Assembly: GCA_037200925.1 (NCBI GenBank)
Contig: JBBCGO010000001.1
Span: 696,235-760,234 of the forward strand
DNA from: Candidatus Doudnabacteria bacterium
Lineage (GTDB): Bacteria > Patescibacteriota > Doudnabacteria > UBA920 > O2-02-FULL-48-8
Length of the DNA stretch: 64,000 bases
Direction of reading: 5' to 3'
Position numbers and translations under genes: made by a program. Shown here one piece after another: positions 3,376 through 51,100 of the stretch. Under the pieces are notes generated by a model, which worked only from the letters and a program-made list of their open reading frames with translations, ran no database searches and was not told the origin of the DNA. Each line of letters begins with the position of its first letter. Positions within the stretch are counted from its first letter, which is position 1.

Positions 3376-3439
3376 GTGATTGTCTCCATAGAAGGTGAGT
3401 CGATCCCGGCTGCTTTTTGTGGCAGCCGGGTAGGATGAT

Positions 3440-23033: not shown

Positions 23034-23060
23034 AAAACAGGACAATTGTCCTGTTTTTTT
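23034..23060 (+). terminator. rho-independent terminator after clpP
   Basis: acaggac-aatt-gtcctgt hairpin plus TTTTTTT. Confidence 0.7.
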
Positions 23061-23075
23061 GTTAACGACTACAGA

Positions 23076-23104
23076 TTGACAAGTACGCTTAAATTTGCTA
23101 TAAT
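23076..23104 (+). promoter_or_regulatory. consensus sigma70-type promoter heading the surface-protein locus
   Basis: Perfect TTGACA (23076-23081), 17-nt spacer, perfect TATAAT (23099-23104). Confidence 0.6.
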
Positions 23105-23278: not shown

Positions 23279-23458
23279 ATGTCTTTTGAGGAACTGCCAG
23301 AGCTTCTGACGATCCGCGAGGTGACTCATTTGCTGAATGTTCATCCGAATACCCTTCGGAATTGGGAAAAAGAAGGGCTGATTAATGTTGTCCGGATCGG
23401 TCCCAGAAAAGACAGGCGATATGAGAAGCAGGTTATCAGGAAAATAATGCGGCCGTAA
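23279..23458 (+). CDS. small HTH DNA-binding protein, excisionase/MerR-like HTH_17 family (59 aa); absent from ORF track
   Basis: LLTIREVTHLLNVHPNTLRNWEKEGLINVVRIGPRKDRRY matches the HTH_17 pattern. Its stop lies 3 nt before the ATG of the giant gene. Confidence 0.6.
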   Translation: MSFEELPELLTIREVTHLLNVHPNTLRNWEKEGLINVVRIGPRKDRRYEKQVIRKIMRP

Positions 23459-23461
23459 AAT

Positions 23462-26400
23462 ATGAGCCAAAATAAAATCAAAATTTTAGCGCTCAAAGTC
23501 ACCATAAGTATTTTAATACTTGGTTTTGTCGCACCTGATATTTTTCCGATCCAGGCTTATTTTATTCCTATTGCACAGGCTGCAACGGGTGTGCCGAAGG
23601 CATTTAGCTATCAAGGCCGTTTAACCGATTCAACCGGCGCACTGCTGGGGGGAGCGGGAACTAACTATACTTTTAAATTTTCCATTTGGGACAGTGCCAC
23701 GCCTCCCGGTGGGACACGGTTGTGGCCAGCAAGCCCGCCCGGTTCTGTAACGCTTAATGTTACCCAAGGAGTGTTCAACGTAAATATTGGAGATACGGCG
23801 CATGGTTATCCGGATGCGCTGACATTTGATTTCAATTCCACCGATACGGCATATCTGCAAGTCGAAGTTTTAAATCCTGCTACCTCCACGTACGAAACTT
23901 TATCACCGCGGCAATTGATCGCATCTTCGGGCTATGCGATCAATGCCGGGACAGCTACTGCCTTGCAGACAGCTCGGAATATAAACGGCGTACCTTTCAA
24001 TGGCACAGCGGATATTACTATCCCTTCCAATACAGACGCCGGAGCTTTAACCGGTACGACCCTGGCCGCTAATATAGTTAATTCATCTTTAACTTTGGTG
24101 GGACACCTGGTTTCAGGCACGCTCATCGGCACTCAGACTTTTACCAACAACAATATTTCTGACAGCGGAGGACTCACAATCGACTCGGGTGGCGCTTTGA
24201 ATTTAGGCACATCTACTTCGACCAGTGTTTCGATTGGCAAAACAGGAACCGTCACCACGATTAATGGTTCTCTGACGATCCCGAACTACATTGACTTCAC
24301 TAACTTAACCGCACCTGCCTACAAGGAGGGCCGATTATTCTACGATCCTGTCAGCAAGTCTTTATCTTTCTACAACGATCTCAGTGGGCTTAGTTTGCAT
24401 ATTGGTCAAACACTCTGGACACGTGTAAAAAATGTAACAGGTGCAACAATTCCCAAAGGTTCATCCGTATATTTTAGCGGTGTTGACGCATTTGGTTTTC
24501 CAACAGTTGCTAAAGCCCAGGCAAACAGTCCCGTAACTACCCAATCAGCAGGAGTTACAACCCAGGATATTCCGAACGGAGCTTATGGTTATGCCACCGG
24601 CGTCGGTTTGGTTGAGAACCTTGATACCTCAGCATTCACCGCGGGTGACCGGCTTTTTCTGTCGCCTACAACACCCGGCGGGTTTGTAACAACCCAGCCT
24701 GCTGCTCCGTTTTTTTCAATGCCTATTGGACGGGTCATAAAATCTGATGCTGTCTCAGGTAGTATTGAAGTTGTCGCTACTCCATTCACCATCGGTGCAT
24801 TTACCTCCGGTTCAATGATATTTGCAAGCCCATTAGGTTTGACGGCCCAGGATAATGCCAATCTGTTCTGGGACAATGCAACAAAGCGCTTGGGCATCGG
24901 TGACAATACGCCTGCGGCAACTCTGACCATCGGCAACGGCACAGCCGGCAGCGGTCTGTTTGAAGTGTTCGGGGCCAACGGCAATGTCACGACGCAAGGC
25001 GATATTACTTTGGCAAACGGAGGAGGCAGCATCACCGCAACAGGCGGCGGTCTGACATTAGTTGGCGGAGCGGCTTCCAATCTTTCAACTACGGCTGGCA
25101 ATATTACGTTGCAGCCTGCAGGCGCCGGAACGACTGCAAATGTACAAATTGGAGCAGGTGGGGCTGGATCAGCAACGCCAGATCTTCTGGTCGTGGATGC
25201 GAAATCATCGGCGGGTGATCCGGCCGGTACCAATGGCGCGATCTACTACAATATTGCTAATAACAGATTCCGTTGTTTTGAAAATAATGCGTGGAAAGAT
25301 TGCGATTCCGTCACTGCCGCAACTTTGCAGGTCGCTTATAATAATAGCGGAGCGATTACGACTTCCGGATCCCATGATATTGCTTTCACGCTCACGTCCG
25401 GGAATTTCATCGCTTCCGGGGCTGGCTCAGTAAATCTTACTCCGACCGCTGCTTCATCTTTTACTTCCGGAGGCGCGTTAACTCTGACTGGGGGAGCGGC
25501 ATCCGCATTATCTACCACTTCCGGTGATCTTACTTTGCAAGCCGGTTCAGGTACGGTTTCCCTGGGTAGCTCGACTAATTTGACCGCAGCAACCGGCTTA
25601 ACTATCTCAACAGGATTCGGCAATATAATATTGCATCCGGCAGGAGCCGGAACAACGGCCACTGTCCAGATCGGTTCCGGCGGAGCCGGCTCTACCGCTC
25701 CTGATCTGTTTGGCGTTGACACAAAGTCAGATGCCGGAGATCCGGCAGGATTTAATGGAGCGATGTATTACAATACCAATTCCAACAGTTTCCGCTGTTA
25801 TGAAAACGGGGCATGGAAAAATTGCGATACGACAGGCGGAACTACAACATTACAATCGGCTTACAGCGCCGGCGCAACTATCACGACCGGAAGCTCAACT
25901 GATATTGTATTTACGCTCGCTTCCGGAAACTTCGATGTTTCAGGGGCCGGCTCGGTAAATCTTACACCCACAGGTAACTCCAGCTTTACTTCTGACGCAA
26001 ATTTAACACTCACTTCCGGTACGGCAACTACATGGGGCACAACTGCCGGAGATCTGACTTTGCAAGTTAACGGCGTCGGGACTACAGGCAGTGTTCATAT
26101 TGGAGCTGGAGCTCCCGGTTCCAACGGCCCTGATCTGTTCGGCCTTGATGTGAAATCAACAGCCGGCGATCCGGCCGGGTATAATGGAGCGATGTATTAC
26201 AACGGCTCATCAAACGTTTTCCGTTGTTTTGAAAATGGAGCATGGAAAGATTGCGGTGCGACGGGAAGCGGAGGAGGATTGTCACTGCAGCAAACGTACA
26301 TAAATGGTCCAACTATTACTACGACCGCGTCAACTGATCTGGCTTTGATCCTTGCTTCCGGTGATTTCACAGCCTCGGGAGCCGGTTCGGTAAATCTTAA

Positions 26401-29400
26401 CCCGACAGGTGCTTCCAGTTTTACTTCCGGCGGAGCATTAACGCTTACCGGCGGAGCGGCATCTGTTTTCGGAACGAGTGCCGGAGATCTGACTTTGCAA
26501 GCTGCCGGAAATGGAACTACGGCAAATGTTCATATTGGCGCAGGAGGTGTCGGGTCCGCCACGCCGGATCTGCTTGCTTTGGATGTGAAATCTACAAGCG
26601 GAGACCCGACCGGTGTCAACGGGTCAATGTACTACAATGCGAGTACAAACAGGTTCAGATGTTATGAAAATAACGCTTGGAAAGATTGTGATATCAGCGG
26701 TACTGATACTTTGCAAACTGTTTATAATAATGGCGCAACTATTGTTACAGCCGGTTCCGTTCCAATCACGTTTAATCTTGCGTCGGGAAATTTTAATGTC
26801 TCCGGCGCAGGGTCTGTAAATCTGACCCCAACCGGAGCGTTAACGCTCACCGGAGGCGCTGCGTCAACATTCTCAACAAGTTCCGGCGCGCTCACAATCG
26901 ACTCAGCAGCTACTTTGAATTTAGGCACCACTAATGCCACCGGAGTCTCCATCGGTAAAACAGGAACTGTCGCCACTGTGAACGGTTCGCTTACGATACC
27001 AAATTACATTGATTTTACGAACACGGTAAAGCCGCCGTATTCTGAAGGCCGAGTTTTTTATGACACAACTGACAAGACTCTTGCATATTATAATGATGCC
27101 TCTAACAGTACGCTGAACATCGGTCAGGAAGAATGGATCCGTGTTAAGAACATTACCGGCACCGATATTGCCGATGGCAAAGTAGTATATATTAGCGGTT
27201 CCTCAGGAGGCATACCGACAGTTGCGTTGGCCAGGGCTGATAGTCCAACTACTTCTCAGGCGGCCGGCATCACAACTAATGCGATTCCCAACGGCAGCAT
27301 CAGTTATATTACTAATTTTGGATTAATTCATAAGGAGAATACCGCGTCGTTCAGTGCGGGAGACCAAATATTCCTTTCAGCCACATCTGCGGGTGATTAC
27401 ACGGCCACCAGGCCCTCTTCCCCGAATCTTACGGTAAAACTTGGTTATATCGCAGTGTCAGATTCAACTTTAGGCATTGTTCTGGCAAATATCGCGCCAG
27501 CGCCGTTTCAATCTGGAATTTTAGGTACCGGCAGTATCCCGTTTGCCAATTCCAGCGGCCTGTTGATTTCAAATAACAACAATTTATTTTGGGACCAGGT
27601 AAATAACCGTCTCGGTATCGGTGACAATACGCCCGCAGCAACTCTGACCATCGGCAATGGCACACCCGGCAGCGCCTTGTTTGAAGTTTTTGGGTCAACT
27701 GGAAATATAACGACGAAAGGGGATATTAATTTGGCTGCCGGCGGTACTATTACAGGTACCGGTCCTTTGGCCATTACTGCAACTGGAGCAAATGCTCTAA
27801 CTTTAGATACAGGAACTACGGGTACAATCAATATCGGTACCGGGATTTCTGGCAAAACTATAAATATTGGCACAGACAACACCGCTGCTGATACGATTGT
27901 CATCGGTTCTTCTCTGGATACTCTTAAACTGGGAAAGTTCAATACGGCTAACGCCATTATCTATACTGCGAATGGAACTACCGATGGCACTCTGGCCTCA
28001 ATAGCCAACGGTACGACAGGGCAATGTTTGGTAGCCACCACAGGGCTTGCCCCTGCTTGGGGAACGTGTCCTGCAGATGCAAGTGCTCTTACAGGAACCA
28101 CTCTTGCAGCCAGTGTAGTTAATTCTTCCTTAACATCAGTTGGAACGTTAACAGGCCTGACCGTCACTGCTCCCATCATAGGTTCTATCACTGGTTCCTC
28201 CGGTTCTACTACCGGCAATGCTGCAACTGCCACCACTCTCGAAACTGCCAGACTCATCAACGGAGTATCATTCAACGGTTCTGCTGACATCACGGTAGCT
28301 GCCGATGCCGGCACTCTGACCGGAAACACTCTTGCTGCGAATGTGGTTAATTCATCTTTAACTTCAGTCGGACCCTTAACAGGTCTTACTGTCATTGCTC
28401 CTATTGCCGGCAGCGTCACCGGTTCAGCCGCCACTGTTACAGATGCTGCACAACCGGCTATTACTTCCGTCGGAACGTTAACAGGTCTTACGGTAACAGC
28501 GCCGATAGTTGGAAGTGTGACAGGAAGTTCCGGTTCTACCACAGGCAATGCTGCTACTGCTACAAAGTTGGAAACGCCTCGTCTCATCAACGGAGTTGCT
28601 TTTGACGGCTCAGCAGATATTACGATCACTGCCGTTGCTGCAGCAGGAACTCTGACAGGTACAACCCTTGCAGCCAATGTGGTTAATTCTTCCTTAACAT
28701 CTGTAGGAACATTGGCAGGATTGACTGTCACAGCTCCGATAGTAGGAAGTGTTACTGGTTCCTCCGGTTCTACCACAGGCAATGCGGCTACAGCTACCAC
28801 TCTTGCAACCCCAAGACTAATCAACGGGGTATCCTTCAATGGTTCTGCCGACATCACAGTTACAGCAGCAGCAGGAACTCTGACAGGAACAACCCTGGCA
28901 GCAGGAGTCACAGCTTCATCTCTAACATCTGTAGGAACATTGGCAGGCTTGACTGTCACAGCTCCGATAGTAGGAAGTATCACAGGCAATGCGGCAACAG
29001 CAACCACTGCTACTTCTGCCACCAACCTTGCCGGAGGCTTGGGAGGCCAGATCCCTTACCAATCAGCTGCAGGAACAACAGCATTCTTAGCCAATGGTAC
29101 TGCAGGACAAGTTCTTCAAAGCAACGGCACAACCCTGGCTCCTACTTGGGTTGCAGCTGCTACCGGAACACTGACCGGATTATCGGTTGTATCAGCAAAT
29201 GGTTTTGCCGGATCTTCCAGCGGCGGCACCACCCCTGCTATTACTATCTCAACCACGATCACAGGATTACTAAAGGGGAATGGAACAGCCATATCTGCTG
29301 CCACAGCAGGCACTGATTATTCCCTGGGAACCTCTGCTTTAGCCACCGGTATCTTAAAGAGCACCACCACTACAGGGGCATTAAGTATTGCAGTGCCGGC

Positions 29401-32400
29401 GGACTTCCCGGTATTGAACCAGAACACTACTGGCTCTGCCGCAACATTAACAACCCCCCGCCTAATCAACGGGGTATCCTTCAATGGTTCTGCTGACATC
29501 ACAGTTACAGCAGCAGCAGGAACTCTGACAGGAACAACCCTGGCAGCAGGAGTCACAGCTTCATCTCTAACATCTGTAGGAACATTGGCAGGCTTGACTG
29601 TCACAGCTCCGATAGTAGGAAGTATCACAGGCAATGCGGCAACAGCAACCACTGCTACTTCTGCCACTAACCTTGCCGGAGGATTAGGAGGCCAGATCCC
29701 TTACCAATCAGCTGCAGGAACAACAGCATTCTTAGCCAATGGTACTGCAGGACAAGTTCTTCAAAGCAACGGCACAACATTAGCTCCGACTTGGGTAGTT
29801 CCAAGTTCAATAGCAGCAGCAGGAACTCTGACAGGAACCACTCTTGCAGCCAATGTGGTTAATTCATCCTTAACATCTGTAGGAACATTGGCAGGCCTTA
29901 CTGTCACAGCTCCGATAGTAGGAAGTATCACAGGTTCCTCCGGTTCTACCACAGGCAATGCTGCTACAGCTACCACTCTTGCAACCCCCCGCCTAATCAA
30001 CGGGGTATCATTCAACGGTTCTGCCGACATCACAGTTACAGCAGCAGCAGGAACTCTGACAGGAACAACCCTGGCAGCAGGAGTCACAGCTTCATCTCTA
30101 ACATCTGTAGGAACATTGGCAGGATTGACTGTCACAGCTCCGATAGTAGGAAGTATTACGGGGAATGCCGGGAGTGCGACCAAGCTAGCAACACCTCGCC
30201 TCATCAACGGAGTTGCTTTTGACGGCACTGCCGATATTACAATCACCGCAGCTGCGGCAGCTGGTACTCTGACCGGCACTACTCTGGCTGCCAATGTGGT
30301 CAACTCGTCCTTAACCTCAGTAGGAGCTTTGGTTTCCGGAACACAGATCGCTTCTCAAACGTTTACCACCAACAACATTGCAGACTCAGGAGCCTTGACC
30401 ATAACTTCAGGGGGAGCTGGCAATTTGGCGCTCAACTCTGCTTCAGGCATAGTGACTTCCAACGGCACAACCGTAACATTGGGAGGCTCAGCCACCATCA
30501 ACGGAGGCAATGCCGCTGCCGGCACCTTAACCTTAGTCTCCACTACCAATGGCACTAAGGGTGATATTCAATTTTTCTCATCCGCTAACAAGATTACTTC
30601 AGCCGGCGCTCTGACCATTGCCGGACCAATAGTTGCTTCCAACTTCACCGGCACATTGACCGGCACCAACACCGGAGACCAGACCATAACCTTAACCGGA
30701 GATGTCACCGGATCAGGCACCGGTACATTTGCCGCTACGATTGCCCCGAATGCTGTGACGACAGGTAAGATCCTTGACGGTACAATTTTAAATGCTGATC
30801 TTGCTAATTCAACAATAGGATTGCTTATTGGTACATCTGGAACAGATGTAGGCGTAACGGGTTCTCCCGCATCACTTGGGGGCAGCCTTACCCTCAATAT
30901 TCCAAACGCCTCCGCAACCAACCGTGGAGTGCTTACCGCAGCCGACTGGGCAGCGTTTAATTCTAAACAGGCAGCTTTTGGATATACGCCGGAAGATGTT
31001 GCTAATAAATCATCAAATGTCAATCTTGGCACTTCCAATATTTTATATCCAACTCAAAATGCGGTAAAAACTTATGTTGACAATCTTACCACTGGCCTCA
31101 TTTGGCAAAACCCGATAGAAAATGCCGGCGTTATTGCCGATACGGCAACTCCGGTCGGATCTCCAGTGAGCGGTGATTCTTACATAATTAATACCGGCGG
31201 CAATACCGGCGTTTGGGCGGGTTTCAGTGCCGGGGACCTGGTCCAGTACCAAGGGACTACATGGGTAAAGGTCAAAAGTCTTGTGGTCGGAGACCGCTTT
31301 GGCGTGAGTTTCTTGTCTCCGACAGTTCCATCCGGAGCCATGACAGGAAAAAGTGACAACCTGGTACAAGTCAGCGGCGGAACTCCCGGCGCATTTACGT
31401 ATACCTTTATCGCCCCAGTAAACAACTATGCAGTGTTTGATCAAAATCCAAACAGTATGAATTACGGAGTGTCCTTCACTTATACCTCATCACTCGGAGA
31501 ATGGGTTGCGCTTTCCGCAAATACCAGATTATCGGCAGGCAACGGTCTGCAAACGGTCGGAACTACCGTAAGTTTAGGAGCCTTGACTGCGGACTGGAAC
31601 CAGACAGGTGTGTTCAATATCAACACCGCAGGCAATGTCAATGTTAACGGCGGAACCCTTGGCACAACAGCATTAACCGGGAATCTTTTTAATACTACAG
31701 CGACAACTTTAAATATTGGCGGAGCTGCGACGAATATTGTCTTGGGAGCCGCAGGCGCAACCCTTACAGGGGGCGGAGCGCTTACTATCAGTTCAGCTCC
31801 AACGACTGCTTTAACTCTTGATTCCGGCACCACCGGAACCGTTAACCTTGCCACAGGCAATAATGGCAAGACCGTCAACATCGGCACCGGTACTTCCGGA
31901 GATATTATTAACATCGGTACGAATAATACAACTGCCGACACCATCTCTATCGGCTCTGCTCTTGATTCACTTAGTATCTCGTCGGCTCACTTTACAGCCA
32001 CCTCAGCCGGAGCGTTGACCATTTCCGGAGCTTTGTCTGCCTCCAACTTCTCCGGCAGTTCATCCGGCACAAACACCGGAGACCAGACTTCTGTTTCCGG
32101 CAATGCCGGTACGGCAACAGCCCTTCAAACACCTCGAGCTATTAATGGAGTAAATTTTGATGGAACTGCTCCGATTACCATCACGGCCGCTGCCGGAACC
32201 TTAACCGGGACCGTCCTGGCTGCCAATGTAGTTAACTCTTCTCTAACATCAGTAGGAACCTTAGCAGGCTTAACTGTCACAGCTCCGATAGTAGGAAGTA
32301 TCACAGGCAATGCGGCTACTGCTACCACTGCTACTTCTGCCACTAACCTTGCCGGAGGATTAGGAGGACAGATCCCTTACCAATCAGCTGCAGGAACAAC

Positions 32401-35400
32401 AGCATTCTTAGCCAATGGTACTGCAGGACAAGTTCTTCAAAGCAACGGCACAACCCTGGCTCCTACTTGGGTTGCAGCTGCTACCGGAACACTGACCGGA
32501 TTATCGGTTGTATCAGCAAATGGTTTTGCCGGATCTTCCAGCGGCGGCACCACCCCTGCTATTACTATCTCAACCACGATCACAGGATTACTAAAGGGGA
32601 ATGGAACAGCCATATCTGCTGCCACAGCAGGCACTGATTATTCCCTGGGAACCTCTGCTTTAGCCACCGGTATCTTAAAGAGCACCACCACTACAGGGGC
32701 ATTAAGTATTGCAGTGCCGGCGGACTTCCCGGTATTGAACCAGAACACTACTGGCTCTGCCGCAACATTAACAACCCCCCGCCTAATCAACGGGGTATCC
32801 TTCAATGGTTCTGCTGACATCACAGTTACAGCAGCAGCAGGAACTCTGACAGGAACAACCCTGGCAGCAGGAGTCACAGCTTCATCTCTAACATCTGTAG
32901 GAACATTGGCAGGCTTGACTGTCACAGCTCCGATAGTAGGAAGTATCACAGGCAATGCGGCAACAGCAACCACTGCTACTTCTGCCACTAACCTTGCCGG
33001 AGGATTAGGAGGCCAGATCCCTTACCAATCAGCTGCAGGAACAACAGCATTCTTAGCCAATGGTACTGCAGGACAAGTTCTTCAAAGCAACGGCACAACA
33101 TTAGCTCCGACTTGGGTAGTTCCAAGTTCAATAGCAGCAGCAGGAACTCTGACAGGAACCACTCTTGCAGCCAATGTGGTTAATTCATCCTTAACATCTG
33201 TAGGAACATTGGCAGGCCTTACTGTCACAGCTCCGATAGTAGGAAGTATCACAGGTTCCTCCGGTTCTACCACAGGCAATGCTGCTACAGCTACCACTCT
33301 TGCAACCCCCCGCCTAATCAACGGGGTATCATTCAACGGTTCTGCCGACATCACAGTTACAGCAGCAGCAGGAACTCTGACAGGAACAACCCTGGCAGCA
33401 GGAGTCACAGCTTCATCTCTAACATCTGTAGGAACATTGGCAGGATTGACTGTCACAGCTCCGATAGTAGGAAGTATTACGGGGAATGCCGGGAGTGCTA
33501 CTACTGCTACCAACGCTACTAATACCGGAATAACAGATGATACTACTACCAATGCATCGGTATATCCGACCTGGGTAACTGCTAATACAGGAAACCTGCC
33601 TCAAAAAGTTTCTTCAACCAAACTTTTCTTCAACCCTTCTACCGGGTTATTAACTTCTACAGGATTTGCAGGGCCTCTAACAGGAAATGTAACCGGTAAT
33701 GTTACTGGTTCCTCCGGTTCTACCACAGGCAATGCTGCTACAGCTACCACTCTTGCCACCCCCCGCCTAATCAACGGGGTATCCTTCAATGGTTCTGCTG
33801 ACATCACAGTTACAGCAGCAGCAGGAACTCTGACAGGAACAACCCTGGCAGCAGGAGTCACAGCTTCATCTCTAACATCTGTAGGAACATTGGCAGGCTT
33901 GACTGTCACAGCTCCGATAGTAGGAAGTATCACAGGCAATGCGGCAACAGCAACCACTGCTACTTCTGCCACTAACCTTGCCGGAGGATTAGGAGGCCAG
34001 ATCCCTTACCAATCAGCTGCAGGAACAACAGCATTCTTAGCCAATGGTACTGCAGGACAAGTTCTTCAAAGCAACGGCACAACATTAGCTCCGACTTGGG
34101 TAGTTCCAAGTTCAATAGCAGCAGCAGGAACTCTGACAGGAACCACTCTTGCAGCCAATGTGGTTAATTCATCCTTAACATCTGTAGGAACATTGGCAGG
34201 CCTTACTGTCACAGCTCCGATAGTAGGAAGTATCACAGGTTCCTCCGGTTCTACCACAGGCAATGCTGCTACAGCCACTGCTTTGCAGACACCACGAGCT
34301 ATTAATGGAGTAAACTTCGATGGCACTGCTCCGATTACTATCACAGCGGCAGCAGGCACATTAACAGGAGCTACATTAGCAGCCAATGTACTTGCCTCGT
34401 CCTTAACATCCGTAGGAACACTTACGAGTCTTTCTACTTCCGGCCAGATCACATCAAGTCTTGCGACAGGAACTGCACCATTTATCGTCGCCTCCACTAC
34501 AAATGTTGCCAATCTAAATGCTTCTTCTTTGAACGGCGCAACCTTTGCCGCTCCAGGAGCCATCGGAAGCGGAACAGCCAGCACCGGGGCTTTCACCGGA
34601 CTTACTCTAGCTGGTCTTGCCGGCAACAACGCCGTGCTCTATGCCACAACCGGCACTGGAGTTGTAGCAACAGCTCCTACTTCTACCGCAGGCTTATGTT
34701 TAACCTCCGGAGCTGGGGCGGGATTTGTTCCTGTTTGGGCCGCTTGCGGCGGAGCAACTCCTACATTACAAACAGTTTATGCCGCGGCTTCCGGCAACAC
34801 CATTACTACTACTGATGCCAGAAACATTGCTTTCACTTTTGCTGATACCGCTACTGACCAATCCTTGACCTTAACTCAGCAGGGAACTGCTCCTTCCTTG
34901 ATCGTGGATGATACCAATGCCGGCACCAACACTGCCATAGACATCAGATCAGGCGGAGCGACCAAGCTGACTATTAATGAGCTGGGAACTATCTCTACTT
35001 CGGGAAACATTACAGTCAGCGGCACCGGCACCATTACCTCCGCAGGATTAGTTACAGCATCAGCCGGCCTAACTGTTACGACCGGAGATCTGGCTATCAC
35101 CGGCGGCAACTTATCCTTGGGCGGCACACAAAGGATCTCCAATGCCGGAGTGGGAGCGTTCATCACCGGCACAACAATCGGCTCCATGACTTTTACTACA
35201 AACAACATCGCAGACTCAGGAGCATTAACTATCAAATCGGCCGGCACTAATCCTTTAACCTTAGACTCGGGTACTACCGGAACAATTAATATTGGCACGG
35301 GTACTGCAGGCAAAACCATCAACATTGGGACAGACAATACAACTGCCGACACGATTGTCATTGGTTCTCCTTTAGATACCATAAGACTTGGCAAGTTTTC

Positions 35401-36895
35401 AGCAGTGAACGGAGTATTGTATGTGGACAATGCCAATGGCAATGTCTCTGAAACTGCCGCTTCAACAGGTATTCAATGTTTGCAAACTTCCGGCGTCGGC
35501 ACAGCTCCGATCTGGGGAGCTTGCGGTGGCGGCGGGACTCTGCAAGCAGCTTACAACTCAGGAAATACAATTCTGACCACAGCTGCCAGCAACGTTACTA
35601 TTACGGATATTGCCGGGACTCAACTCGCGGTGAATATGAATGGTGGAGTTGCTCCGACAGTTGATATGGTTAACATTTCAAATGCCACTGGCGTCACGAC
35701 TGCGGGTGTCAGCGGTTTGCAGATCACTTATCTGGGAGGCGCGGCAGCGGTGGAAGCTTCCGGGGAACGAATTGATATTACTGGAGGTACTACGGCGGGC
35801 GGCATTTGGAATGGATTGAGACTGACACAGGGAACGGTTACGCCCGGTATAACGGTCCAGGATCTTAAATTGGAAACAGCGACACTGACTCAATCTACAG
35901 CTGCAACAACGAATATTAACGGCTTGAATTTGGGTGTAGCCGGAGCTTTAGTTCAACAGACTTTGGCTGGTGCAATCAACTGGGACGGCTTAAATATTAC
36001 TACTCCCGCTTTAACAGAGACAACGGGAACCGTGATTGCTAATGGCTTGAATATAACTCCTGGTTCAGCCGGGGTGGGAGCCGAGCTGAACGGTATTAAT
36101 ATAGGCAACTCTGCCGGGGGCGCATCTACCCAGGAATCAGCAATTAAAGTAGGTACCGGTTGGGACAATATTCTCAGCAGCCCTAATGCATCGATAACGG
36201 GAGCAGGCGCCATGACAGTCACTTCTTGTACCGGTTGCGGAACCTTGATCGGAGTACAGACGTTCGTCAACGGCAACGTTACATACACAAAAACAGCAGG
36301 AACAACCAATGCGATCATTGAACTCTGGGGTGGCGGCGGCGCTGGCGGCAGCTGTACAGCCGTAGCCGGATGCGCAGCTGGCGGCGGAGGCTCCGGCGGT
36401 TACGCGCGATATTACTTTACTGGTATGGGGGCCGGACCTTTCACAATCGCTGTGGGTGCTGGTGGAACTGCTGTCGCTGGAGCCACGGGTAATACCGGAG
36501 GCATAACCACATTCAACACAGGCGTAACCACAATAACTGCAAACGGCGGCTTGGGTGGAACAACGGCGGCAGGCACTGCAGTTATTAAATATGTGGCAGG
36601 TGGAGCAGGAGGCGGTATTTCCACAAACGGCACAGTGAACCTTGCCGGCGCTCCGGGAGGCTCAGGCATGACCAGTACTGTTGTCACAACAGAATCATCA
36701 GGATTTGGTGGGTCAACATCTCTTGGCGGCGGCGGTGTAGCAGTTACAAATAATATTGGCGCAACAGCGCTAGCCGGTATTGCGGCAATTGCAAATACAG
36801 GGTCCGGCGGTTCGGGCGCAGCAACAGGCACAACAACATTGGCAACAGGAGGGGCGGGAGCCGGGGGCAGAATCATTATCTATGAGTTCAGATAA
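23462..36895 (+). CDS. giant (4477 aa) repetitive Thr/Gly/Ala/Ser-rich extracellular protein; putative fibrous surface or adhesin-like protein
   Basis: Uninterrupted 13.4-kb ORF. N-terminal hydrophobic signal/anchor. Almost no charged residues. Nested repeats and Cys-pair modules. Gly-rich C-terminal domain. Confidence 0.85.
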   Translation: MSQNKIKILALKVTISILILGFVAPDIFPIQAYFIPIAQAATGVPKAFSYQGRLTDSTGALLGGAGTNYTFKFSIWDSATPPGGTRLWPASPPGSVTLNVTQGVFNVNIGDTAHGYPDALTFDFNSTDTAYLQVEVLNPATSTYETLSPRQLIASSGYAINAGTATALQTARNINGVPFNGTADITIPSNTDAGALTGTTLAANIVNSSLTLVGHLVSGTLIGTQTFTNNNISDSGGLTIDSGGALNLGTSTSTSVSIGKTGTVTTINGSLTIPNYIDFTNLTAPAYKEGRLFYDPVSKSLSFYNDLSGLSLHIGQTLWTRVKNVTGATIPKGSSVYFSGVDAFGFPTVAKAQANSPVTTQSAGVTTQDIPNGAYGYATGVGLVENLDTSAFTAGDRLFLSPTTPGGFVTTQPAAPFFSMPIGRVIKSDAVSGSIEVVATPFTIGAFTSGSMIFASPLGLTAQDNANLFWDNATKRLGIGDNTPAATLTIGNGTAGSGLFEVFGANGNVTTQGDITLANGGGSITATGGGLTLVGGAASNLSTTAGNITLQPAGAGTTANVQIGAGGAGSATPDLLVVDAKSSAGDPAGTNGAIYYNIANNRFRCFENNAWKDCDSVTAATLQVAYNNSGAITTSGSHDIAFTLTSGNFIASGAGSVNLTPTAASSFTSGGALTLTGGAASALSTTSGDLTLQAGSGTVSLGSSTNLTAATGLTISTGFGNIILHPAGAGTTATVQIGSGGAGSTAPDLFGVDTKSDAGDPAGFNGAMYYNTNSNSFRCYENGAWKNCDTTGGTTTLQSAYSAGATITTGSSTDIVFTLASGNFDVSGAGSVNLTPTGNSSFTSDANLTLTSGTATTWGTTAGDLTLQVNGVGTTGSVHIGAGAPGSNGPDLFGLDVKSTAGDPAGYNGAMYYNGSSNVFRCFENGAWKDCGATGSGGGLSLQQTYINGPTITTTASTDLALILASGDFTASGAGSVNLNPTGASSFTSGGALTLTGGAASVFGTSAGDLTLQAAGNGTTANVHIGAGGVGSATPDLLALDVKSTSGDPTGVNGSMYYNASTNRFRCYENNAWKDCDISGTDTLQTVYNNGATIVTAGSVPITFNLASGNFNVSGAGSVNLTPTGALTLTGGAASTFSTSSGALTIDSAATLNLGTTNATGVSIGKTGTVATVNGSLTIPNYIDFTNTVKPPYSEGRVFYDTTDKTLAYYNDASNSTLNIGQEEWIRVKNITGTDIADGKVVYISGSSGGIPTVALARADSPTTSQAAGITTNAIPNGSISYITNFGLIHKENTASFSAGDQIFLSATSAGDYTATRPSSPNLTVKLGYIAVSDSTLGIVLANIAPAPFQSGILGTGSIPFANSSGLLISNNNNLFWDQVNNRLGIGDNTPAATLTIGNGTPGSALFEVFGSTGNITTKGDINLAAGGTITGTGPLAITATGANALTLDTGTTGTINIGTGISGKTINIGTDNTAADTIVIGSSLDTLKLGKFNTANAIIYTANGTTDGTLASIANGTTGQCLVATTGLAPAWGTCPADASALTGTTLAASVVNSSLTSVGTLTGLTVTAPIIGSITGSSGSTTGNAATATTLETARLINGVSFNGSADITVAADAGTLTGNTLAANVVNSSLTSVGPLTGLTVIAPIAGSVTGSAATVTDAAQPAITSVGTLTGLTVTAPIVGSVTGSSGSTTGNAATATKLETPRLINGVAFDGSADITITAVAAAGTLTGTTLAANVVNSSLTSVGTLAGLTVTAPIVGSVTGSSGSTTGNAATATTLATPRLINGVSFNGSADITVTAAAGTLTGTTLAAGVTASSLTSVGTLAGLTVTAPIVGSITGNAATATTATSATNLAGGLGGQIPYQSAAGTTAFLANGTAGQVLQSNGTTLAPTWVAAATGTLTGLSVVSANGFAGSSSGGTTPAITISTTITGLLKGNGTAISAATAGTDYSLGTSALATGILKSTTTTGALSIAVPADFPVLNQNTTGSAATLTTPRLINGVSFNGSADITVTAAAGTLTGTTLAAGVTASSLTSVGTLAGLTVTAPIVGSITGNAATATTATSATNLAGGLGGQIPYQSAAGTTAFLANGTAGQVLQSNGTTLAPTWVVPSSIAAAGTLTGTTLAANVVNSSLTSVGTLAGLTVTAPIVGSITGSSGSTTGNAATATTLATPRLINGVSFNGSADITVTAAAGTLTGTTLAAGVTASSLTSVGTLAGLTVTAPIVGSITGNAGSATKLATPRLINGVAFDGTADITITAAAAAGTLTGTTLAANVVNSSLTSVGALVSGTQIASQTFTTNNIADSGALTITSGGAGNLALNSASGIVTSNGTTVTLGGSATINGGNAAAGTLTLVSTTNGTKGDIQFFSSANKITSAGALTIAGPIVASNFTGTLTGTNTGDQTITLTGDVTGSGTGTFAATIAPNAVTTGKILDGTILNADLANSTIGLLIGTSGTDVGVTGSPASLGGSLTLNIPNASATNRGVLTAADWAAFNSKQAAFGYTPEDVANKSSNVNLGTSNILYPTQNAVKTYVDNLTTGLIWQNPIENAGVIADTATPVGSPVSGDSYIINTGGNTGVWAGFSAGDLVQYQGTTWVKVKSLVVGDRFGVSFLSPTVPSGAMTGKSDNLVQVSGGTPGAFTYTFIAPVNNYAVFDQNPNSMNYGVSFTYTSSLGEWVALSANTRLSAGNGLQTVGTTVSLGALTADWNQTGVFNINTAGNVNVNGGTLGTTALTGNLFNTTATTLNIGGAATNIVLGAAGATLTGGGALTISSAPTTALTLDSGTTGTVNLATGNNGKTVNIGTGTSGDIINIGTNNTTADTISIGSALDSLSISSAHFTATSAGALTISGALSASNFSGSSSGTNTGDQTSVSGNAGTATALQTPRAINGVNFDGTAPITITAAAGTLTGTVLAANVVNSSLTSVGTLAGLTVTAPIVGSITGNAATATTATSATNLAGGLGGQIPYQSAAGTTAFLANGTAGQVLQSNGTTLAPTWVAAATGTLTGLSVVSANGFAGSSSGGTTPAITISTTITGLLKGNGTAISAATAGTDYSLGTSALATGILKSTTTTGALSIAVPADFPVLNQNTTGSAATLTTPRLINGVSFNGSADITVTAAAGTLTGTTLAAGVTASSLTSVGTLAGLTVTAPIVGSITGNAATATTATSATNLAGGLGGQIPYQSAAGTTAFLANGTAGQVLQSNGTTLAPTWVVPSSIAAAGTLTGTTLAANVVNSSLTSVGTLAGLTVTAPIVGSITGSSGSTTGNAATATTLATPRLINGVSFNGSADITVTAAAGTLTGTTLAAGVTASSLTSVGTLAGLTVTAPIVGSITGNAGSATTATNATNTGITDDTTTNASVYPTWVTANTGNLPQKVSSTKLFFNPSTGLLTSTGFAGPLTGNVTGNVTGSSGSTTGNAATATTLATPRLINGVSFNGSADITVTAAAGTLTGTTLAAGVTASSLTSVGTLAGLTVTAPIVGSITGNAATATTATSATNLAGGLGGQIPYQSAAGTTAFLANGTAGQVLQSNGTTLAPTWVVPSSIAAAGTLTGTTLAANVVNSSLTSVGTLAGLTVTAPIVGSITGSSGSTTGNAATATALQTPRAINGVNFDGTAPITITAAAGTLTGATLAANVLASSLTSVGTLTSLSTSGQITSSLATGTAPFIVASTTNVANLNASSLNGATFAAPGAIGSGTASTGAFTGLTLAGLAGNNAVLYATTGTGVVATAPTSTAGLCLTSGAGAGFVPVWAACGGATPTLQTVYAAASGNTITTTDARNIAFTFADTATDQSLTLTQQGTAPSLIVDDTNAGTNTAIDIRSGGATKLTINELGTISTSGNITVSGTGTITSAGLVTASAGLTVTTGDLAITGGNLSLGGTQRISNAGVGAFITGTTIGSMTFTTNNIADSGALTIKSAGTNPLTLDSGTTGTINIGTGTAGKTINIGTDNTTADTIVIGSPLDTIRLGKFSAVNGVLYVDNANGNVSETAASTGIQCLQTSGVGTAPIWGACGGGGTLQAAYNSGNTILTTAASNVTITDIAGTQLAVNMNGGVAPTVDMVNISNATGVTTAGVSGLQITYLGGAAAVEASGERIDITGGTTAGGIWNGLRLTQGTVTPGITVQDLKLETATLTQSTAATTNINGLNLGVAGALVQQTLAGAINWDGLNITTPALTETTGTVIANGLNITPGSAGVGAELNGINIGNSAGGASTQESAIKVGTGWDNILSSPNASITGAGAMTVTSCTGCGTLIGVQTFVNGNVTYTKTAGTTNAIIELWGGGGAGGSCTAVAGCAAGGGGSGGYARYYFTGMGAGPFTIAVGAGGTAVAGATGNTGGITTFNTGVTTITANGGLGGTTAAGTAVIKYVAGGAGGGISTNGTVNLAGAPGGSGMTSTVVTTESSGFGGSTSLGGGGVAVTNNIGATALAGIAAIANTGSGGSGAATGTTTLATGGAGAGGRIIIYEFR
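24850..26700 (+). repeat. four in-frame copies of a ~145-175-aa module ending in DPAG-NGA-YYN...FRC-EN-AWK-C (conserved Cys pair)
   Basis: RFRCFENNAWKDCD, SFRCYENGAWKNCD, VFRCFENGAWKDCG and RFRCYENNAWKDCD at about 25261, 25790, 26218 and 26653. Confidence 0.7.
28950..30180 (+). repeat. ~1.2-kb intragenic segment, copy A, near-identical to 32270-33500
   Basis: Antisense ORFs 29116..29313 = 32437..32634 and 29317..29667 = 32638..32988 are identical. Offset is 3321 nt (1107 codons). Confidence 0.8.
32270..33500 (+). repeat. ~1.2-kb intragenic segment, copy B of 28950-30180
   Basis: See copy A. A ~230-nt Thr-rich subunit recurs at least 6 times at >95% identity across 28.7-34.3 kb. Confidence 0.8.
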
Positions 36896-36897
36896 AA

Positions 36898-39489
36898 ATG
36901 ACGGAGAGAAAAACCAAATTAATATTAATAGCAGTTATTTCTGCAGGAATATTCGGAGTCGGATTTTATTTTCTTGCGTTGCCTCATCTCAATTTGAATA
37001 AAACGGCAACTACTGTAACCAAGTTGTTTGGCTCAGTATTTCCGACGCCTAAATTCCCTTCAACCGGAACGATAGAAACGCCGGTTGAAGGAACTCCCAC
37101 CGCAGTAACACCTGATGTAAACACTCCGGCTGCAGGAACATCTGCCGGTACGACACCAGCTATTGTAATACCACTTGCAACTAGACAAGCATTTGCGAGA
37201 CCGATCACCGATACGACACCACAATTGCTCGGCAAGACAATATTTAGAAAGAAAGACCAGGCGACGATACCGGTTCATCCTCGTTTCAAGAACGGTAATA
37301 CAAATATTGCTTTTTATGCATTGTGTCCGACCGTGGCTTGTCCTGCCGTCGGTACCACGGCTTCACCCAAGTATAATTTTTTTGCAGAAGATACAACTAC
37401 CGGTGATCAACCGTTTTCAAATTATTGGACTCCTGACCCTTCTTTTCATAAAATTGTAGTAGTAGAATATGTTAATGATAATCACCAATTTACGTGTTCG
37501 GATCTTAGCTTAGATCAGTGTATTGCCAATCGACATTTCATCAGTCAAACTTCTATACAACTTGTAGATGACAATGCGATAACTTTTCATATAATTACGC
37601 TCGTTGAGAACGGGACCGACGGTACGGCCGTTCCTTCTGACTTTATGGTTCACGTCAAGAATGCCGGTGCGGATGTTGCAGCAAGTCCTGCATCCGGAAC
37701 GGCAGTATTACCGGGAACTTTATATACACTTTCTGCCGGCACCTATGCTGTCAGTGAGGATGCAAATGCTCTTTACACCCAAAGCTTCAGCGGGGATTGT
37801 GATTTGACCGGCGGCATTACTCTGGTGGCAGGGGATGACAAGACATGTACCATCACCAACACTTTCGGTCCGCCGGTGACAACAACGGCCACCCTGCACG
37901 TCATTAAACAGGTTAATAACAGTAGCGGCGGCACGGCAGTTGCTTCCGACTTTAATATTCACGTCAAGAATGCCGGAGCGGATGTCGCAGGAAGCCCGAC
38001 AGTCGGAACAGCTGCGCCGGGATCTTTATATTCACTCGCTGTCGGCATATACAACGTCAGCGAAGATGCCAACACTTCTTATACGCCAAGCTTTAGCGGT
38101 AATTGTGATATAACCGGCAGCATTACTCTGGTGGCAGGGGATGACAAGACATGTACCATCACCAACAATCAAATATCTGCAAACACGACACCGGCTGCTC
38201 TTCATGTCATTAAGCTCGTAGTTAATGGAAGTGACGGCATCGCAACTTCTTCTGACTTTAATATCCACGTAAAGAATGCAGGTGGGGATGTTGTGGGAAG
38301 TCCTGCGGTCGGAGTTGCAGCACCCGGAACTTTGTATACACTTTCTGCAGGCGCGTATGCTGTCAGTGAGGATGCGAATGCCCTATACACGCAAAGCTTC
38401 AGCGGGGATTGTGATGCTGGTGGCAATGTGACGTTGCTGGCTGGCGACAATAAGACATGTACCATCACCAACACTCAAATTTCTTCAGTACCGATAGTAC
38501 CGCCACCTGGGACGGGTACAGTTTTGGCAACACTTCATGTAATCAAACTCGTGGTTAATAGCAGCGACAGCACGGCGGTTGCATCCGACTTTAATATCCA
38601 CGTAAAGAATGCCGATGTGGATGTGCCGGGGAGCCCGGCAGTCGGGGCTGCGACGCCCGGAACTTCTTATTCTCTCTCTCCCGGCACGGTTGTAATAAGC
38701 GAAGATGCCAACATCGCTTATGTACAAAGCTTTAGCGGGGATTGTGATTCGACCGGCAATATTACGCTGTCGGTTGGCGACGACAAGACATGTACGATTA
38801 CCAACACCAATATTTCTGTTCCGGTACCTACCCCTATTCCCGAGCCCACCCCAACTCCAACTACCTCGCCAGACACCACAGCACCGGTCATCATACTTAT
38901 TGGCGATCCAACGATTAATCTAAATGTCGGCGACACATATATAGAACAAGGTGCTACCGCAACAGATGATGTCGATAGCTCGGTTGCAGTTGTGGTCAGC
39001 GGGACTGTGGACACATCTACAGCCGGTACTTATATAATTCACTACAACGCCACAGACGCTGCCGACAACCCTGCGACCGAAGTTACCCGAACGATCAATG
39101 TAGCCGAATCAGTCCCAGCTTTACCCAGTACGGGATCGGGTCCTCTTATGCTAAGTAATTCATCAGGTATTATTATACTGAATGTGATCCTCGGGATAAT
39201 TTTGGCTTCGCTTGTTTTCTTGTTTATAAGGAAACGCAGGGGTAGCCCGGTTGTTAAACAGGATCAGCAAATAGACAGCACCGCGATTAGTTCTGCCCCA
39301 ACTGCACTCGTCGGGCGTAATAATCCCGAACAACCCACAGCGTCAGGGGATCATACAAGCACCGGCAATAATCAGATCGATAAGCCGCCGATCCAGACCC
39401 CCACCCCAGAGCCTACTCCGCTCCCAGCACCAAAAATAACTCCCGAACCTACACAGCCGGAAAACAATGATAAGGAAGTTTTGAAATAA
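36898..39489 (+). CDS. cell-surface repeat protein with Ig-like (DUF5011-like) domain and LPSTG sorting-signal-like motif
   Basis: N-terminal TM/signal. Five tandem ~100-aa repeats. Ig-like segment (PVIILIGDPTINLNVGDTYIEQGATATDDVDSS...GTYIIHYNATDAADN). LPSTGSG, a hydrophobic stretch and RKRRG, followed by an unusual ~100-aa Pro/Thr-rich tail. Confidence 0.75.
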   Translation: MTERKTKLILIAVISAGIFGVGFYFLALPHLNLNKTATTVTKLFGSVFPTPKFPSTGTIETPVEGTPTAVTPDVNTPAAGTSAGTTPAIVIPLATRQAFARPITDTTPQLLGKTIFRKKDQATIPVHPRFKNGNTNIAFYALCPTVACPAVGTTASPKYNFFAEDTTTGDQPFSNYWTPDPSFHKIVVVEYVNDNHQFTCSDLSLDQCIANRHFISQTSIQLVDDNAITFHIITLVENGTDGTAVPSDFMVHVKNAGADVAASPASGTAVLPGTLYTLSAGTYAVSEDANALYTQSFSGDCDLTGGITLVAGDDKTCTITNTFGPPVTTTATLHVIKQVNNSSGGTAVASDFNIHVKNAGADVAGSPTVGTAAPGSLYSLAVGIYNVSEDANTSYTPSFSGNCDITGSITLVAGDDKTCTITNNQISANTTPAALHVIKLVVNGSDGIATSSDFNIHVKNAGGDVVGSPAVGVAAPGTLYTLSAGAYAVSEDANALYTQSFSGDCDAGGNVTLLAGDNKTCTITNTQISSVPIVPPPGTGTVLATLHVIKLVVNSSDSTAVASDFNIHVKNADVDVPGSPAVGAATPGTSYSLSPGTVVISEDANIAYVQSFSGDCDSTGNITLSVGDDKTCTITNTNISVPVPTPIPEPTPTPTTSPDTTAPVIILIGDPTINLNVGDTYIEQGATATDDVDSSVAVVVSGTVDTSTAGTYIIHYNATDAADNPATEVTRTINVAESVPALPSTGSGPLMLSNSSGIIILNVILGIILASLVFLFIRKRRGSPVVKQDQQIDSTAISSAPTALVGRNNPEQPTASGDHTSTGNNQIDKPPIQTPTPEPTPLPAPKITPEPTQPENNDKEVLK
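37560..38830 (+). repeat. five tandem ~300-nt coding repeats (each with Cys pair SG.CD...KTCTITN)
   Basis: LHVIK..VN.S.G.A.ASDFNIHVKNAG.DV.GSP.VG.AAPG.LY.L..G.Y.VSEDAN..YT.SFSGDCD..G.ITL.AGDDKTCTITN repeated five times. Confidence 0.7.
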
Positions 39490-39568
39490 GAACCGGGAAC
39501 GGTTGACTTGCCATTTGAAATAATATTTGTTATCATTTGGGTACAAGAAATTAATATAAACGAAACAA

Positions 39569-40114
39569 ATGCCAAATGAAATAGATACTCCACCAGCAGG
39601 TGGAAGCACTCCTACACCAACTCCGGCTCCGAGCGAGCCGATACCAGGCGGTGTTAATCGCTGGCGCTGGGCGAACTGGACAACCAAAGCCGTAATGACT
39701 TTGGCAGTCTTACTGCTTTTAGGAGCAGTTGGAACCGCAGGATTTTTTTATAAGCAGTTGACGGATATTAAGAAAGACCCAAACAAGGTGGCTGCTGATG
39801 AAACTAATGCCACTATCAGTGCAATTGGCAAATTGATAGTTTTGCCGACCGATGAACAGCCAACGCTGGCGACCGTAACCGATCCGAGCAAACTTGCGGA
39901 TCAGCCGTTCTTTGCTTCCGCCAAAATGGGCGATAAGGTTTTGATCTACACCAATGCCAAGAAAGCCATCCTATACGATCCTGTCGCTAATAAGATCGTG
40001 GAAGTAGCGCCGATCAATATCGGCAATACTGCCGCGGCTCCAAGTGCCGTATCCGGCGCTTCAACTGACGCTTCAAAAACCTCCGCACCCGCAACCCAAA
40101 CCCCAAAGAAATAA
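39569..40114 (+). CDS. membrane-anchored protein, unknown function
   Basis: Pro/Thr-rich N-terminus, one TM helix, extracytoplasmic domain. Confidence 0.5.
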   Translation: MPNEIDTPPAGGSTPTPTPAPSEPIPGGVNRWRWANWTTKAVMTLAVLLLLGAVGTAGFFYKQLTDIKKDPNKVAADETNATISAIGKLIVLPTDEQPTLATVTDPSKLADQPFFASAKMGDKVLIYTNAKKAILYDPVANKIVEVAPINIGNTAAAPSAVSGASTDASKTSAPATQTPKK

Positions 40115-40192
40115 AAATAGAAGAAATAGCAAACAGTAAGAAATAAATAGAATAAAACCCAGGTATGAGCCAGGGTTTTATTTTGCTATACT

Positions 40193-41548: not shown

Positions 41549-41549
41549 T

Positions 41550-42779: not shown

Positions 42780-43758
42780 ATCCGGAATGACAATCCTCGG
42801 TTTTCTGGCGGTTTTTTTGTTTTTGCCCCAAATTTCTCACGCCGCAACCATATTCACCACTCCCTCCTCAGGAAGTTTTGGAGTAGGCTCTTCTTTTACA
42901 GTTTCCATAAAAACCAACACGCAGGGAGCTGCGGTCAACACTGCTGAAGCCACGATCTCTTATTCCACCGACACCCTGGACCTGGTCTCGGTCAAACAAG
43001 GTTCAACTTTTTTCCTCTCCGCACCCGGTTCGCCTGCCAAAGGAACAGGCACCGCTTATTTTGGCGGGGGAGTGCCCTCACCGGGTTACAATGGTAGCGG
43101 GGGCACTCTCGGTACCGCCACATTCCGCGCCAAGGCAGCGGGGGCAGCGACTGTCACTATCAGTTCCGGCAAGGTTTTATTGAATGACGGCAATGGCACT
43201 GATGCTTTTTCAGGCGGTTCAGGCGGCCGGTTTAATATTACGGCACCGGCGCCTTACGCAACCCCTTCAACATCACCGGCAGGCGCGTTAACCGTAACAG
43301 TGACATCCGGTACACATCCGGTGCAGGATAATTCGTACAGCAGCCGCGATGTTATTCTGAACTGGGATAGGCCGGCTGGTGTTTTTGGCTATAGTTTTGC
43401 GCTGGACCAAATTCCGGATACGATCCCTGACAATACATTAGATACGACGGTCACCACTACCAAGACATACACCGGTTTAGCGGACGGGACCTGGTATTTT
43501 CATATCAAGGCTCGTACGCAATCTTCTTCTGCCGGGTTTGGACCGACTACAAATTTTAAAATCCAAATTAATACCCAAAATCCAGCATCGCTGACTCCTC
43601 CGGCACCGATAGCGGCACCGGGTTCGGCAAGCGTCGGGTTTTTTCAGAGCACCGTGTCCGTTCCGGTCTATATTTTGTATTCACTGATTGTGCTGATCCT
43701 GATCTTGTCCGGATTTTTAATTTGGTTTATGGCTAAGAGCAGTAAGAAAAAGCGTTGA
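42757..43758 (+). CDS. membrane-anchored cohesin-like domain protein 2
   Basis: Signal peptide. Cohesin-like (VNTAEATISYSTDTLDLVSVKQG...GTATFRAKAAGAATVTISSGKVLLNDGNGT). Conserved second domain (GTWYFHIKAR). C-terminal TM plus KKKR. Confidence 0.6.
   Translation: MKITSQHKSGMTILGFLAVFLFLPQISHAATIFTTPSSGSFGVGSSFTVSIKTNTQGAAVNTAEATISYSTDTLDLVSVKQGSTFFLSAPGSPAKGTGTAYFGGGVPSPGYNGSGGTLGTATFRAKAAGAATVTISSGKVLLNDGNGTDAFSGGSGGRFNITAPAPYATPSTSPAGALTVTVTSGTHPVQDNSYSSRDVILNWDRPAGVFGYSFALDQIPDTIPDNTLDTTVTTTKTYTGLADGTWYFHIKARTQSSSAGFGPTTNFKIQINTQNPASLTPPAPIAAPGSASVGFFQSTVSVPVYILYSLIVLILILSGFLIWFMAKSSKKKR

Positions 43759-49640: not shown

Positions 49641-51100
<1,460 letters not shown>

Follow-up and report, generated by a model that had tools for sequence, protein, structure and literature searches.

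A window of 64,000 nucleotides (nt) from a Candidatus Doudnabacteria bacterium (assembly GCA_037200925.1, contig JBBCGO010000001.1, positions 696,235 to 760,234), to whose own numbering positions refer unless another locus is named, carries a giant open reading frame (ORF) of 4,477 amino acids (aa) in which a block of 1.3 kilobases (kb) is present twice. It is likely that this block represents a genuine and very recent internal copy, made in frame by gene conversion, in a cellular gene encoding a giant secreted fibre. Self-comparison demonstrated that the core of the block, 29048-30177, recurs base for base at 32369-33498, a perfect match of 1,130 nt at an offset of 3,321 nt (1,107 codons) that is far beyond chance, and that the near-identical run around this core at the same offset extends over 1,283 nt (28911-30193). 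This agrees with an earlier note made from the letters alone, which had described a near-identical 1.2-kb intragenic duplication at the same offset; over 28950-30180, 9 of 1,231 nt were mismatched, and the duplication keeps to the reading frame. A third copy, partial but perfect over 518 nt (29453-29970 = 32774-33291 = 33758-34275), absent from that note, lies further downstream, and a 173-nt tract is present four times within the repeat region. Every repeat copy is contained in the single giant ORF, and the offsets between copies (3321, 984, 4305, 645, 531 and 453 nt) are each divisible by three. The copies are not in tandem: 2,038 nt (30194-32230) separate the near-identical blocks and 2,191 nt separate the perfect cores, and this inter-block DNA, mostly encoding a central domain of ~600 aa, has no close second copy. 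The elements of the gene are as follows.

23462..36895, plus strand: giant ORF of 4,477 aa (NCBI MEJ0021750.1, 'hypothetical protein', Candidatus Doudnabacteria)
23462..23581, plus strand: probable Sec signal peptide (aa 1-40) with a hydrophobic core and an AQA/A signal-peptidase motif, recognised by inspection and hydropathy
23582..23941, plus strand: conserved head domain (ATGVP-x-SYQGRLTD...FKFSIWD), common across Patescibacteria
28082..30262, plus strand: repeat array 1 (aa 1541-2267), with the module order b a b b' a b a b c d b c e b a b a'
28911..30193, plus strand: copy 1 of the duplicated block, (b) c d b c e b a b, with the core 29048-30177
30263..32095, plus strand: adaptor and unique central domain (aa 2268-2878), separating the two arrays and lacking any close second copy
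32096..34471, plus strand: repeat array 2 (aa 2879-3670), with the module order a'' b c d b c e b a b f a b c e b a b*
32232..33514, plus strand: copy 2 of the duplicated block, with the perfect core 32369-33498
33758..34275, plus strand: third, partial perfect copy of 518 nt (tail of a, b c e b, head of a)
36188..36892, plus strand: C-terminal tip, TNF-like as well as glycine-rich (Pfam Gly_rich_2, 32.7 bits against a cut-off of 24.3)

Both arrays are composed of the same kinds of module, of which a has 38 aa (PRLINGVSFNG motif), b 38 aa (SSLTSVG motif), c 55 aa (GQVLQS motif), d ~100 aa plus half of an a module (LKGNG...AGTDY motif) and f 75 aa (FNPSTGLL motif). The earlier note had also claimed that a subunit of ~230 nt recurs at least six times at >95% identity; this is slightly too high, as a 230-nt window found at most five placements at >=95% identity and six placements were obtained only for windows of 114-177 nt. 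The antisense ORFs on which it had relied (29116..29313 = 32437..32634 and 29317..29667 = 32638..32988) are indeed present and identical in the two copies, and are GTG-started by-products opposite the giant gene with no evidence of being genes. Exact direct repeats of at least 1 kb were found in none of 167 related loci (1.86 Mb), mostly short-read assemblies that are biased against keeping long repeats, the longest being 912, 504 and 272 nt.

Pairwise comparison of the 228-nt a-b units separated them into pairs with 0, 6-10 (all synonymous), 26-32 or 65-115 nt differences. Copies span 100% to ~65% nucleotide identity with almost only synonymous changes, which fall mostly at third positions even in the oldest classes and are exclusively synonymous in the youngest. 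This ladder of ages indicates that copying happened repeatedly while the protein was under strong purifying selection. The edges of the duplicated block differ in character: the 5' edge is gradual, with 12 differences in 28916-29047, all at third positions and all synonymous, and the 3' edge is abrupt at 30178-30183, right after an 'NAGSAT' prefix common to both of the differing next modules. Both ends of the 518-nt copy fall inside a modules. Since the units flanking the block in array 2 are far more diverged from it (72-102 differences) than those in array 1 (6-10 differences), the sequence suggests that array 1 was the donor and array 2 the recipient.

A simple tandem duplication or a single unequal crossing-over was rejected as the origin, because the block alone is duplicated and the intervening 2 kb of DNA is single. 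It is likely that one array received the module string (b)-c-d-b-c-e-b-a-b from the other by non-reciprocal copying, anchored in homologous modules at both ends, through gene conversion or template switching, and that a shorter piece was then copied once more, further downstream. Earlier rounds of the same copying, amounting to concerted evolution, would have built the arrays, and the outcome would be a longer shaft with an altered module composition. Long perfect direct repeats are substrates for homologous recombination. Consistent with the earlier description of these repeats as recombination hot spots, traces of past exchange are preserved in the age ladder and in the copy boundaries lying inside homologous modules. 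The perfect repeats may now permit more in-frame length changes through homologous recombination: the predicted recombinants stay open, giving length variants of 3,370 aa after a 3,321-nt deletion and also of 4,149 or 3,042 aa, and reciprocal expansions are likewise possible.

Perfect repeats of this kind could alternatively serve a programme of selected, frequent switching, by cassette antigenic variation, ON/OFF phase variation or a diversity-generating retroelement, which we regard as quite unlikely. The protein is probably surface-exposed and in contact with a host, the several zero-difference tracts imply very recent or frequent exchange, and another Patescibacteria giant ORF, an open frame of >2,522 aa in a Saccharibacteria metagenome-assembled genome (MAG; locus L006, 14371-21936), contains a perfect direct repeat of 912 nt whose copies are offset by 891 nt, i.e. 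in tandem. Very long perfect internal repeats are not unique to the present gene among giant ORFs of Patescibacteria. However, the in-frame offsets throughout make an ON/OFF switch impossible, so that the phase-variation risk put forward in the earlier note falls away; recombinants would stay in frame and change in length only. Silent-cassette antigenic variation was rejected because the arrays share no 20-mer, on either strand, with the rest of the 64-kb window, which leaves no silent donor cassettes nearby. The gene was likewise rejected as the target of a diversity-generating retroelement, given that no reverse transcriptase is found among the annotated neighbours and that the few differences between copies are synonymous third-position changes with adenines in either copy, unlike the adenine-specific mismatches of retroelement mutagenesis. 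Moreover, the variable parts differ in length alone and include no hypervariable tip.

A genuine internal copy also has to be weighed against an assembly artefact, in which the true gene would hold fewer or more copies of the block, falsely duplicated or collapsed; this appears very improbable. Perfect repeats of 1.1 and 0.5 kb classically cause errors of this sort, the coverage is modest, contig ends nearly always cut off the related genes in MAGs from short reads, and the structure has no confirming independent assembly. The source contig, however, is the single-contig 'nearly finished' genome 3_UBA920 of 964,444 base pairs (bp), recovered from beech deadwood and placed in Patescibacteria, class Doudnabacteria, genus 2-01-FULL-45-18, with a CheckM2 completeness of 97% and contamination of 0.01% and a pass in GUNC (PMC11613949). 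It was assembled by hifiasm-meta from PacBio HiFi reads with a mean length of 18,340 bp, recruited from one sample only (sample 57; deposited runs SRR28211698-SRR28211701), at a coverage of ~8.4x (PMC11613949). A collapse is unlikely because the mean read is longer than the 1.3-kb block, the block plus spacer (4.6 kb), the 5.8-kb repeat zone and the whole 13.4-kb gene. Furthermore, each copy of the block has different unique flanks, and the continuous ladder of older diverged copies with synonymous-only differences is the product of evolution and not of an assembler. The duplication is probably not an assembly error, and the suspicion of short-read mis-assembly voiced in the earlier note applies to the relatives of the gene, as 41 of 48 named homologs are partial, and not to this single PacBio HiFi contig.

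The giant gene occupies 1.39% of the genome, and its exact 4,477-aa product is on record once (MEJ0021750.1, contig JBBCBH010000057.1). On that contig the gene lies at ~713,733-727,166, a record coordinate being 750,628 minus the coordinate in the window. Thr (17.8%), Gly (14.8%), Ala (14.0%) and Ser (9.3%) together make up 56% of the protein. Its N-terminus is a probable Sec signal peptide, judging from a motif that is kept in homologs, and is followed by the head domain, which stands at the N-terminus in 117 of 118 homologs and is likely to form the cell-proximal end of the fibre. The 398 homologs of the N-terminal region are overwhelmingly from Patescibacteria. Between the head domain and array 1 come knob and spacer regions. 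In the N-terminal third, four older units of ~150-175 aa (24872-26890) each end in GDPAG-NGAMYYN-x-FRC[YF]EN-x-W-KDC, and an 'IPNYIDFTN...' knob region occurs twice, at aa 273 and 1179 (24278 and 26996); these repeats matched no Pfam family and a single weak PHROG family of unknown function. Distant relatives of the central domain between the arrays occur in large proteins from other members of Patescibacteria, and the domain matched DUF2793 weakly. As a whole, the giant protein gave no match by sequence in Pfam, NCBIfam or the Protein Data Bank (PDB), and it was the splitting of the protein into segments that revealed the Gly_rich_2 match of the tip.

The shaft modules are of phage tail-fibre type. 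The giant protein matched the PHROG tail-fibre families phrog_1833 (2e-68) and phrog_20242 (1e-54), and array 1 alone matched 16 PHROG families, mostly tail fibre or tail, with a best E value of 6e-47. Among the first 600 candidates in IMG/VR, 442 matches to the modules were confirmed, the best viral locus (L089) being a contig of a genuine tailed phage that encodes a tail sheath and a fibre of 1,212 aa. A HMMER search of a 1.84-billion-protein library found the modules in 7,061 cluster representatives, the longest having 4,485 aa, and none of the best library matches shares the overall architecture of the giant protein; the 4,485-aa representative (P0140) was rejected as an ortholog on account of local module matches only, and P0121 and P0122 likewise match only locally. 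A tblastn search of the block against deposited phage genomes gave no match, probably owing to low-complexity masking, and a c-d module query matched two uncultured Caudoviricetes tail-fibre genes.

The tip comprises the last ~235 aa (aa 4243-4477), and its homologs are nearly all PF21722 proteins. A profile of these homologs matched the tail fibre of cyanophage Pam3 (7yfw/7ypx) with E = 3e-10. The AlphaFold2 model of the tip is of high confidence (predicted local distance difference test (pLDDT) 91.5, predicted template modelling score (pTM) 0.87), and a Foldseek search with it retrieved 7ypx_A (E = 3e-8, template modelling score (TM) 0.63/0.60); the model also resembles the Bxb1 tail-tip protein and has a weaker likeness to the TNF-like/glycine-rich domains of ALK/LTK. 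In Pam3 the TNF-like/glycine-rich domains recognise the host receptor (PMC9608196). The tip modelled here is a probable distal receptor-binding domain, and the fibre probably mediates the attachment of a presumably epibiotic cell to its host or substrate.

The neighbourhood of the gene is that of a cellular locus. The flanking features are listed below, and in three Doudnabacteria genomes a helix-turn-helix (HTH) gene of 59-65 aa abuts or overlaps the start of the giant gene: in the window, in the genome L169 (GCA_016788665.1; 5823-6011) and in the genome L170 (5807-6004).

23076..23104, plus strand: promoter-like site, sigma-70 TTGACA-17-TATAAT with an extended TG, 12/12 consensus match
23279..23458, plus strand: HTH_17/MerR-type DNA-binding protein of 59 aa (Pfam labels), ending 3 nt before the ATG of the giant gene
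36898..39489, plus strand: Ig-like/SpaA_2 surface protein of 863 aa, starting 2 nt past the stop codon of the giant gene

The HTH protein is conserved in sequence (MSFEELPELLTIREV... in the window as in L170) and may serve as a regulator dedicated to the fibre gene. After clpP, a hairpin and its T-run come before the promoter-like site (23035-23104), and the putative promoter would drive the HTH gene together with the giant gene; its complete match to the sigma-70 consensus suggests strong transcription of this unit. Ribosomal protein genes and the genes for RNase Y, NusA and ClpP lie upstream. L170 displays the same order, namely RNase Y, YmdB, a methyltransferase, NusA, ClpP, the small HTH protein and the N-terminus of the homolog. 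In L169, the HTH and giant-gene pair adjoins type IV pilus genes, a T2SSF/PilC and PilM-like cluster (L169, 1-3708) lying ~2.3 kb upstream of the pair with a DNA polymerase III delta gene between. Downstream of the giant gene, a run of surface-protein genes (36898-45179) encodes the SpaA_2/Ig-like protein, a dockerin/fn3/Big_6 protein and two cohesin-like proteins, which may be partners for anchoring or assembly of the fibre. The 863-aa SpaA_2/Ig-like gene has a 306-nt tandem repeat of its own (37617-38415, 2.6 copies, 73% matches). Beyond the surface-protein genes, a complete 16S ribosomal RNA (rRNA) gene was located at 49641-51099 (1,459 nt, 1,413 bits), with no 23S rRNA gene in the 13 kb that follow to the end of the window; the rRNA genes are apparently not linked. 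At the other end of the window, a compositional island (903-5837; GC 0.58-0.62 and GC content at third codon positions (GC3) 0.65-0.79, against 0.49 for the window), encoding a Ser/Thr protein kinase and a VWA-domain protein on the minus strand, may have been horizontally acquired.

Codon use differs along the giant gene, with GC3 of 0.32-0.35 in the repeat arrays (28082-34471) and 0.43-0.46 in the remainder, and the Thr, Ala and Gly codons of the arrays are moved towards A- or T-ending forms. Foreign origin, expression level or the history of the repeats may each account for this. The overall GC3 of 0.405 lies at the low edge of the range in the window, level with one housekeeping ORF, compared to ~0.57 in neighbouring housekeeping genes; a horizontal origin deduced from codon use was set aside as indecisive, as the value stays within this range. 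The least probable reading of all takes the giant gene for the tail-fibre gene of a phage or prophage, or for an insertion recently derived from a phage, with repeats that are the usual tail-fibre mosaicism: strong PHROG tail-fibre matches, abundant relatives on viral contigs, a tip like the Pam3 and Bxb1 tail proteins and the shift towards A- or T-ending codons speak for it, but no phage structural, packaging or integrase genes were found within ~20 kb on either side, the gene lies among RNase Y, NusA, ClpP, surface-protein and 16S rRNA genes and not next to tail or baseplate genes, its GC3 stays within the range of the window, though at the edge, and its N-terminus carries a signal peptide and a Patescibacteria cellular head domain in place of a virion-attachment domain. 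Given the housekeeping synteny with another Doudnabacteria genome, this is a cellular gene and not part of a prophage.

The family to which the gene belongs is widespread in Patescibacteria and undescribed, and the giant gene is a new and unusually complete member. Of the NCBI-named homologs of the N-terminal head domain (23462-24871), 41 of 48 are flagged 'partial', and the homologs listed have at most ~820 aa, with the 4,477-aa query itself absent, so that giant proteins were apparently missed. In two Doudnabacteria homologs, one of them fully syntenic, contig ends cut the gene at 461 and 808 codons; the related assemblies GCA_016205105.1 and GCA_016788665.1 are truncated in this gene. In public MAGs built from short reads, contig ends systematically cut the head-domain family short, which largely obscures its true sizes and repeat content. 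Scanning a genome collection, which did not include this genome, with the central domain returned only distant Patescibacteria relatives without repeat modules, and the best match of the metagenome scan reached 60% identity, with no close relative. Because the named homologs are mostly partial and a complete ortholog was not found, the giant gene is apparently the sole complete copy recovered here of this Patescibacteria-wide surface-protein family.

Several points weigh against a recent conversion event in a gene for a giant secreted fibre. The genome-collection, metagenome and protein-library scans yielded no ortholog in which the repeat region is complete, and the copying events can consequently be neither polarised nor dated against an outgroup. 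The copy number given here is that of the published assembly, whose coverage is only ~8x, and in a 15-billion-protein collection the giant protein is a singleton cluster, with no independent assembly or length variant of it. On the structural side, the AlphaFold model of the block core is poor (pLDDT 64.6) and gave no fold matches, and a PDB profile search with the block alignment matched no solved structure to the shaft modules; for these reasons, it is the analogy with phage fibres from which the geometry of the fibre and its trimerisation are assumed, and on which the giant protein would form a trimeric fibre. The giant protein has no LPxTG or other recognised anchor motif, and for what appears to be a secreted, fibre-like surface protein both the adhesive function and the anchoring are what we infer from its modules, tip and setting.

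The duplication as such is ordinary, an instance of concerted evolution in a repetitive surface-protein gene. What matters is the gene itself: a reduced genome of ~1 Mb spends 1.4% of its DNA on one fibre built of phage tail-fibre modules with a phage-type tip. If this fibre mediates host attachment, it offers a concrete and testable candidate for partner recognition in an uncultivated epibiont lineage. A bolder and rather doubtful proposal is that Patescibacteria have domesticated phage tail-fibre parts into cell-borne 'mega tail fibres', in which the conserved, secreted head docks on the cell's own envelope, the modular shaft is tuned in length through in-frame gene conversion among its homogenised modules and the phage-type TNF-like/glycine-rich tip recognises the host. 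Were this true, an epibiont would find its host as a phage does, and the perfect copies would be the working substrate of variation in length and reach, not a passive by-product. Tail fibres are unmentioned in the literature listed by the one targeted search made, and a preprint on giant genes (10.1101/2023.11.21.568195) describes much larger genes of Omnitrophota and nothing relevant to this family.

Compared with known systems, the giant protein stands closest in its parts to phage tail fibres. Its shaft modules fall in the families PHROG 1833, 20242, 6722, 22609 and 454, and its tip is like Pam3 gp24 (PDB 7ypx/7yfw) in profile (E = 3e-10) and in fold (TM 0.63); by sequence and model, it thus combines similarity to tail-fibre families with a distal C-terminal domain of probable receptor-binding type. 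As in phage fibres, a conserved N-terminal end is followed by a variable body and a distal C-terminal tip, the whole being mosaic and modular. Unlike phage fibres, it is encoded in a syntenic cellular housekeeping neighbourhood away from tail and baseplate genes, begins with a signal peptide and a Patescibacteria head and not with a virion-attachment domain, has no recognised chaperone gene nearby and, at 4,477 aa, is several times longer than the recovered phage fibres, such as the 1,212-aa fibre of L089. Block homologs, for example in Daejeonella, bear the NCBI name 'beta strand repeat-containing proteins'. With these and with the Gly_rich_2 (PF21722) proteins, the giant protein has modules in common but not architecture, as many of them end in other domains, e.g. 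Lcl_C or Fib_succ_major; it is only in this lineage that a signal peptide, a Patescibacteria head, two arrays and a Gly-rich tip are combined.

Within the phylum, a transposon sequencing (Tn-seq) study of Southlakia epibionticum reports that epibiotic growth requires multiple adhesins (PMC10633639), some of them large. The likeness of these adhesins to the giant protein lies in phylum and presumed lifestyle.

The closest parallel for the behaviour of the repeats is provided by the giant repetitive adhesins. In examples such as the streptococcal Alp/Rib family and the staphylococcal repeat proteins, recombination homogenises the repeats, whose number varies in frame. Unlike in the Alp/Rib-type adhesins, the recent copy described here is dispersed, lying 3,321 nt away across a unique domain and not in tandem, the modules are of phage tail-fibre type and not Ig-like or Rib-like, and the giant protein carries no recognised anchor such as LPxTG. 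In other respects it resembles them: a secretion signal, recognised here by inspection, accompanies very long arrays of near-identical coding repeats, the offsets are in frame, young copies are identical even at synonymous sites, and older, diverged copies stand alongside them.

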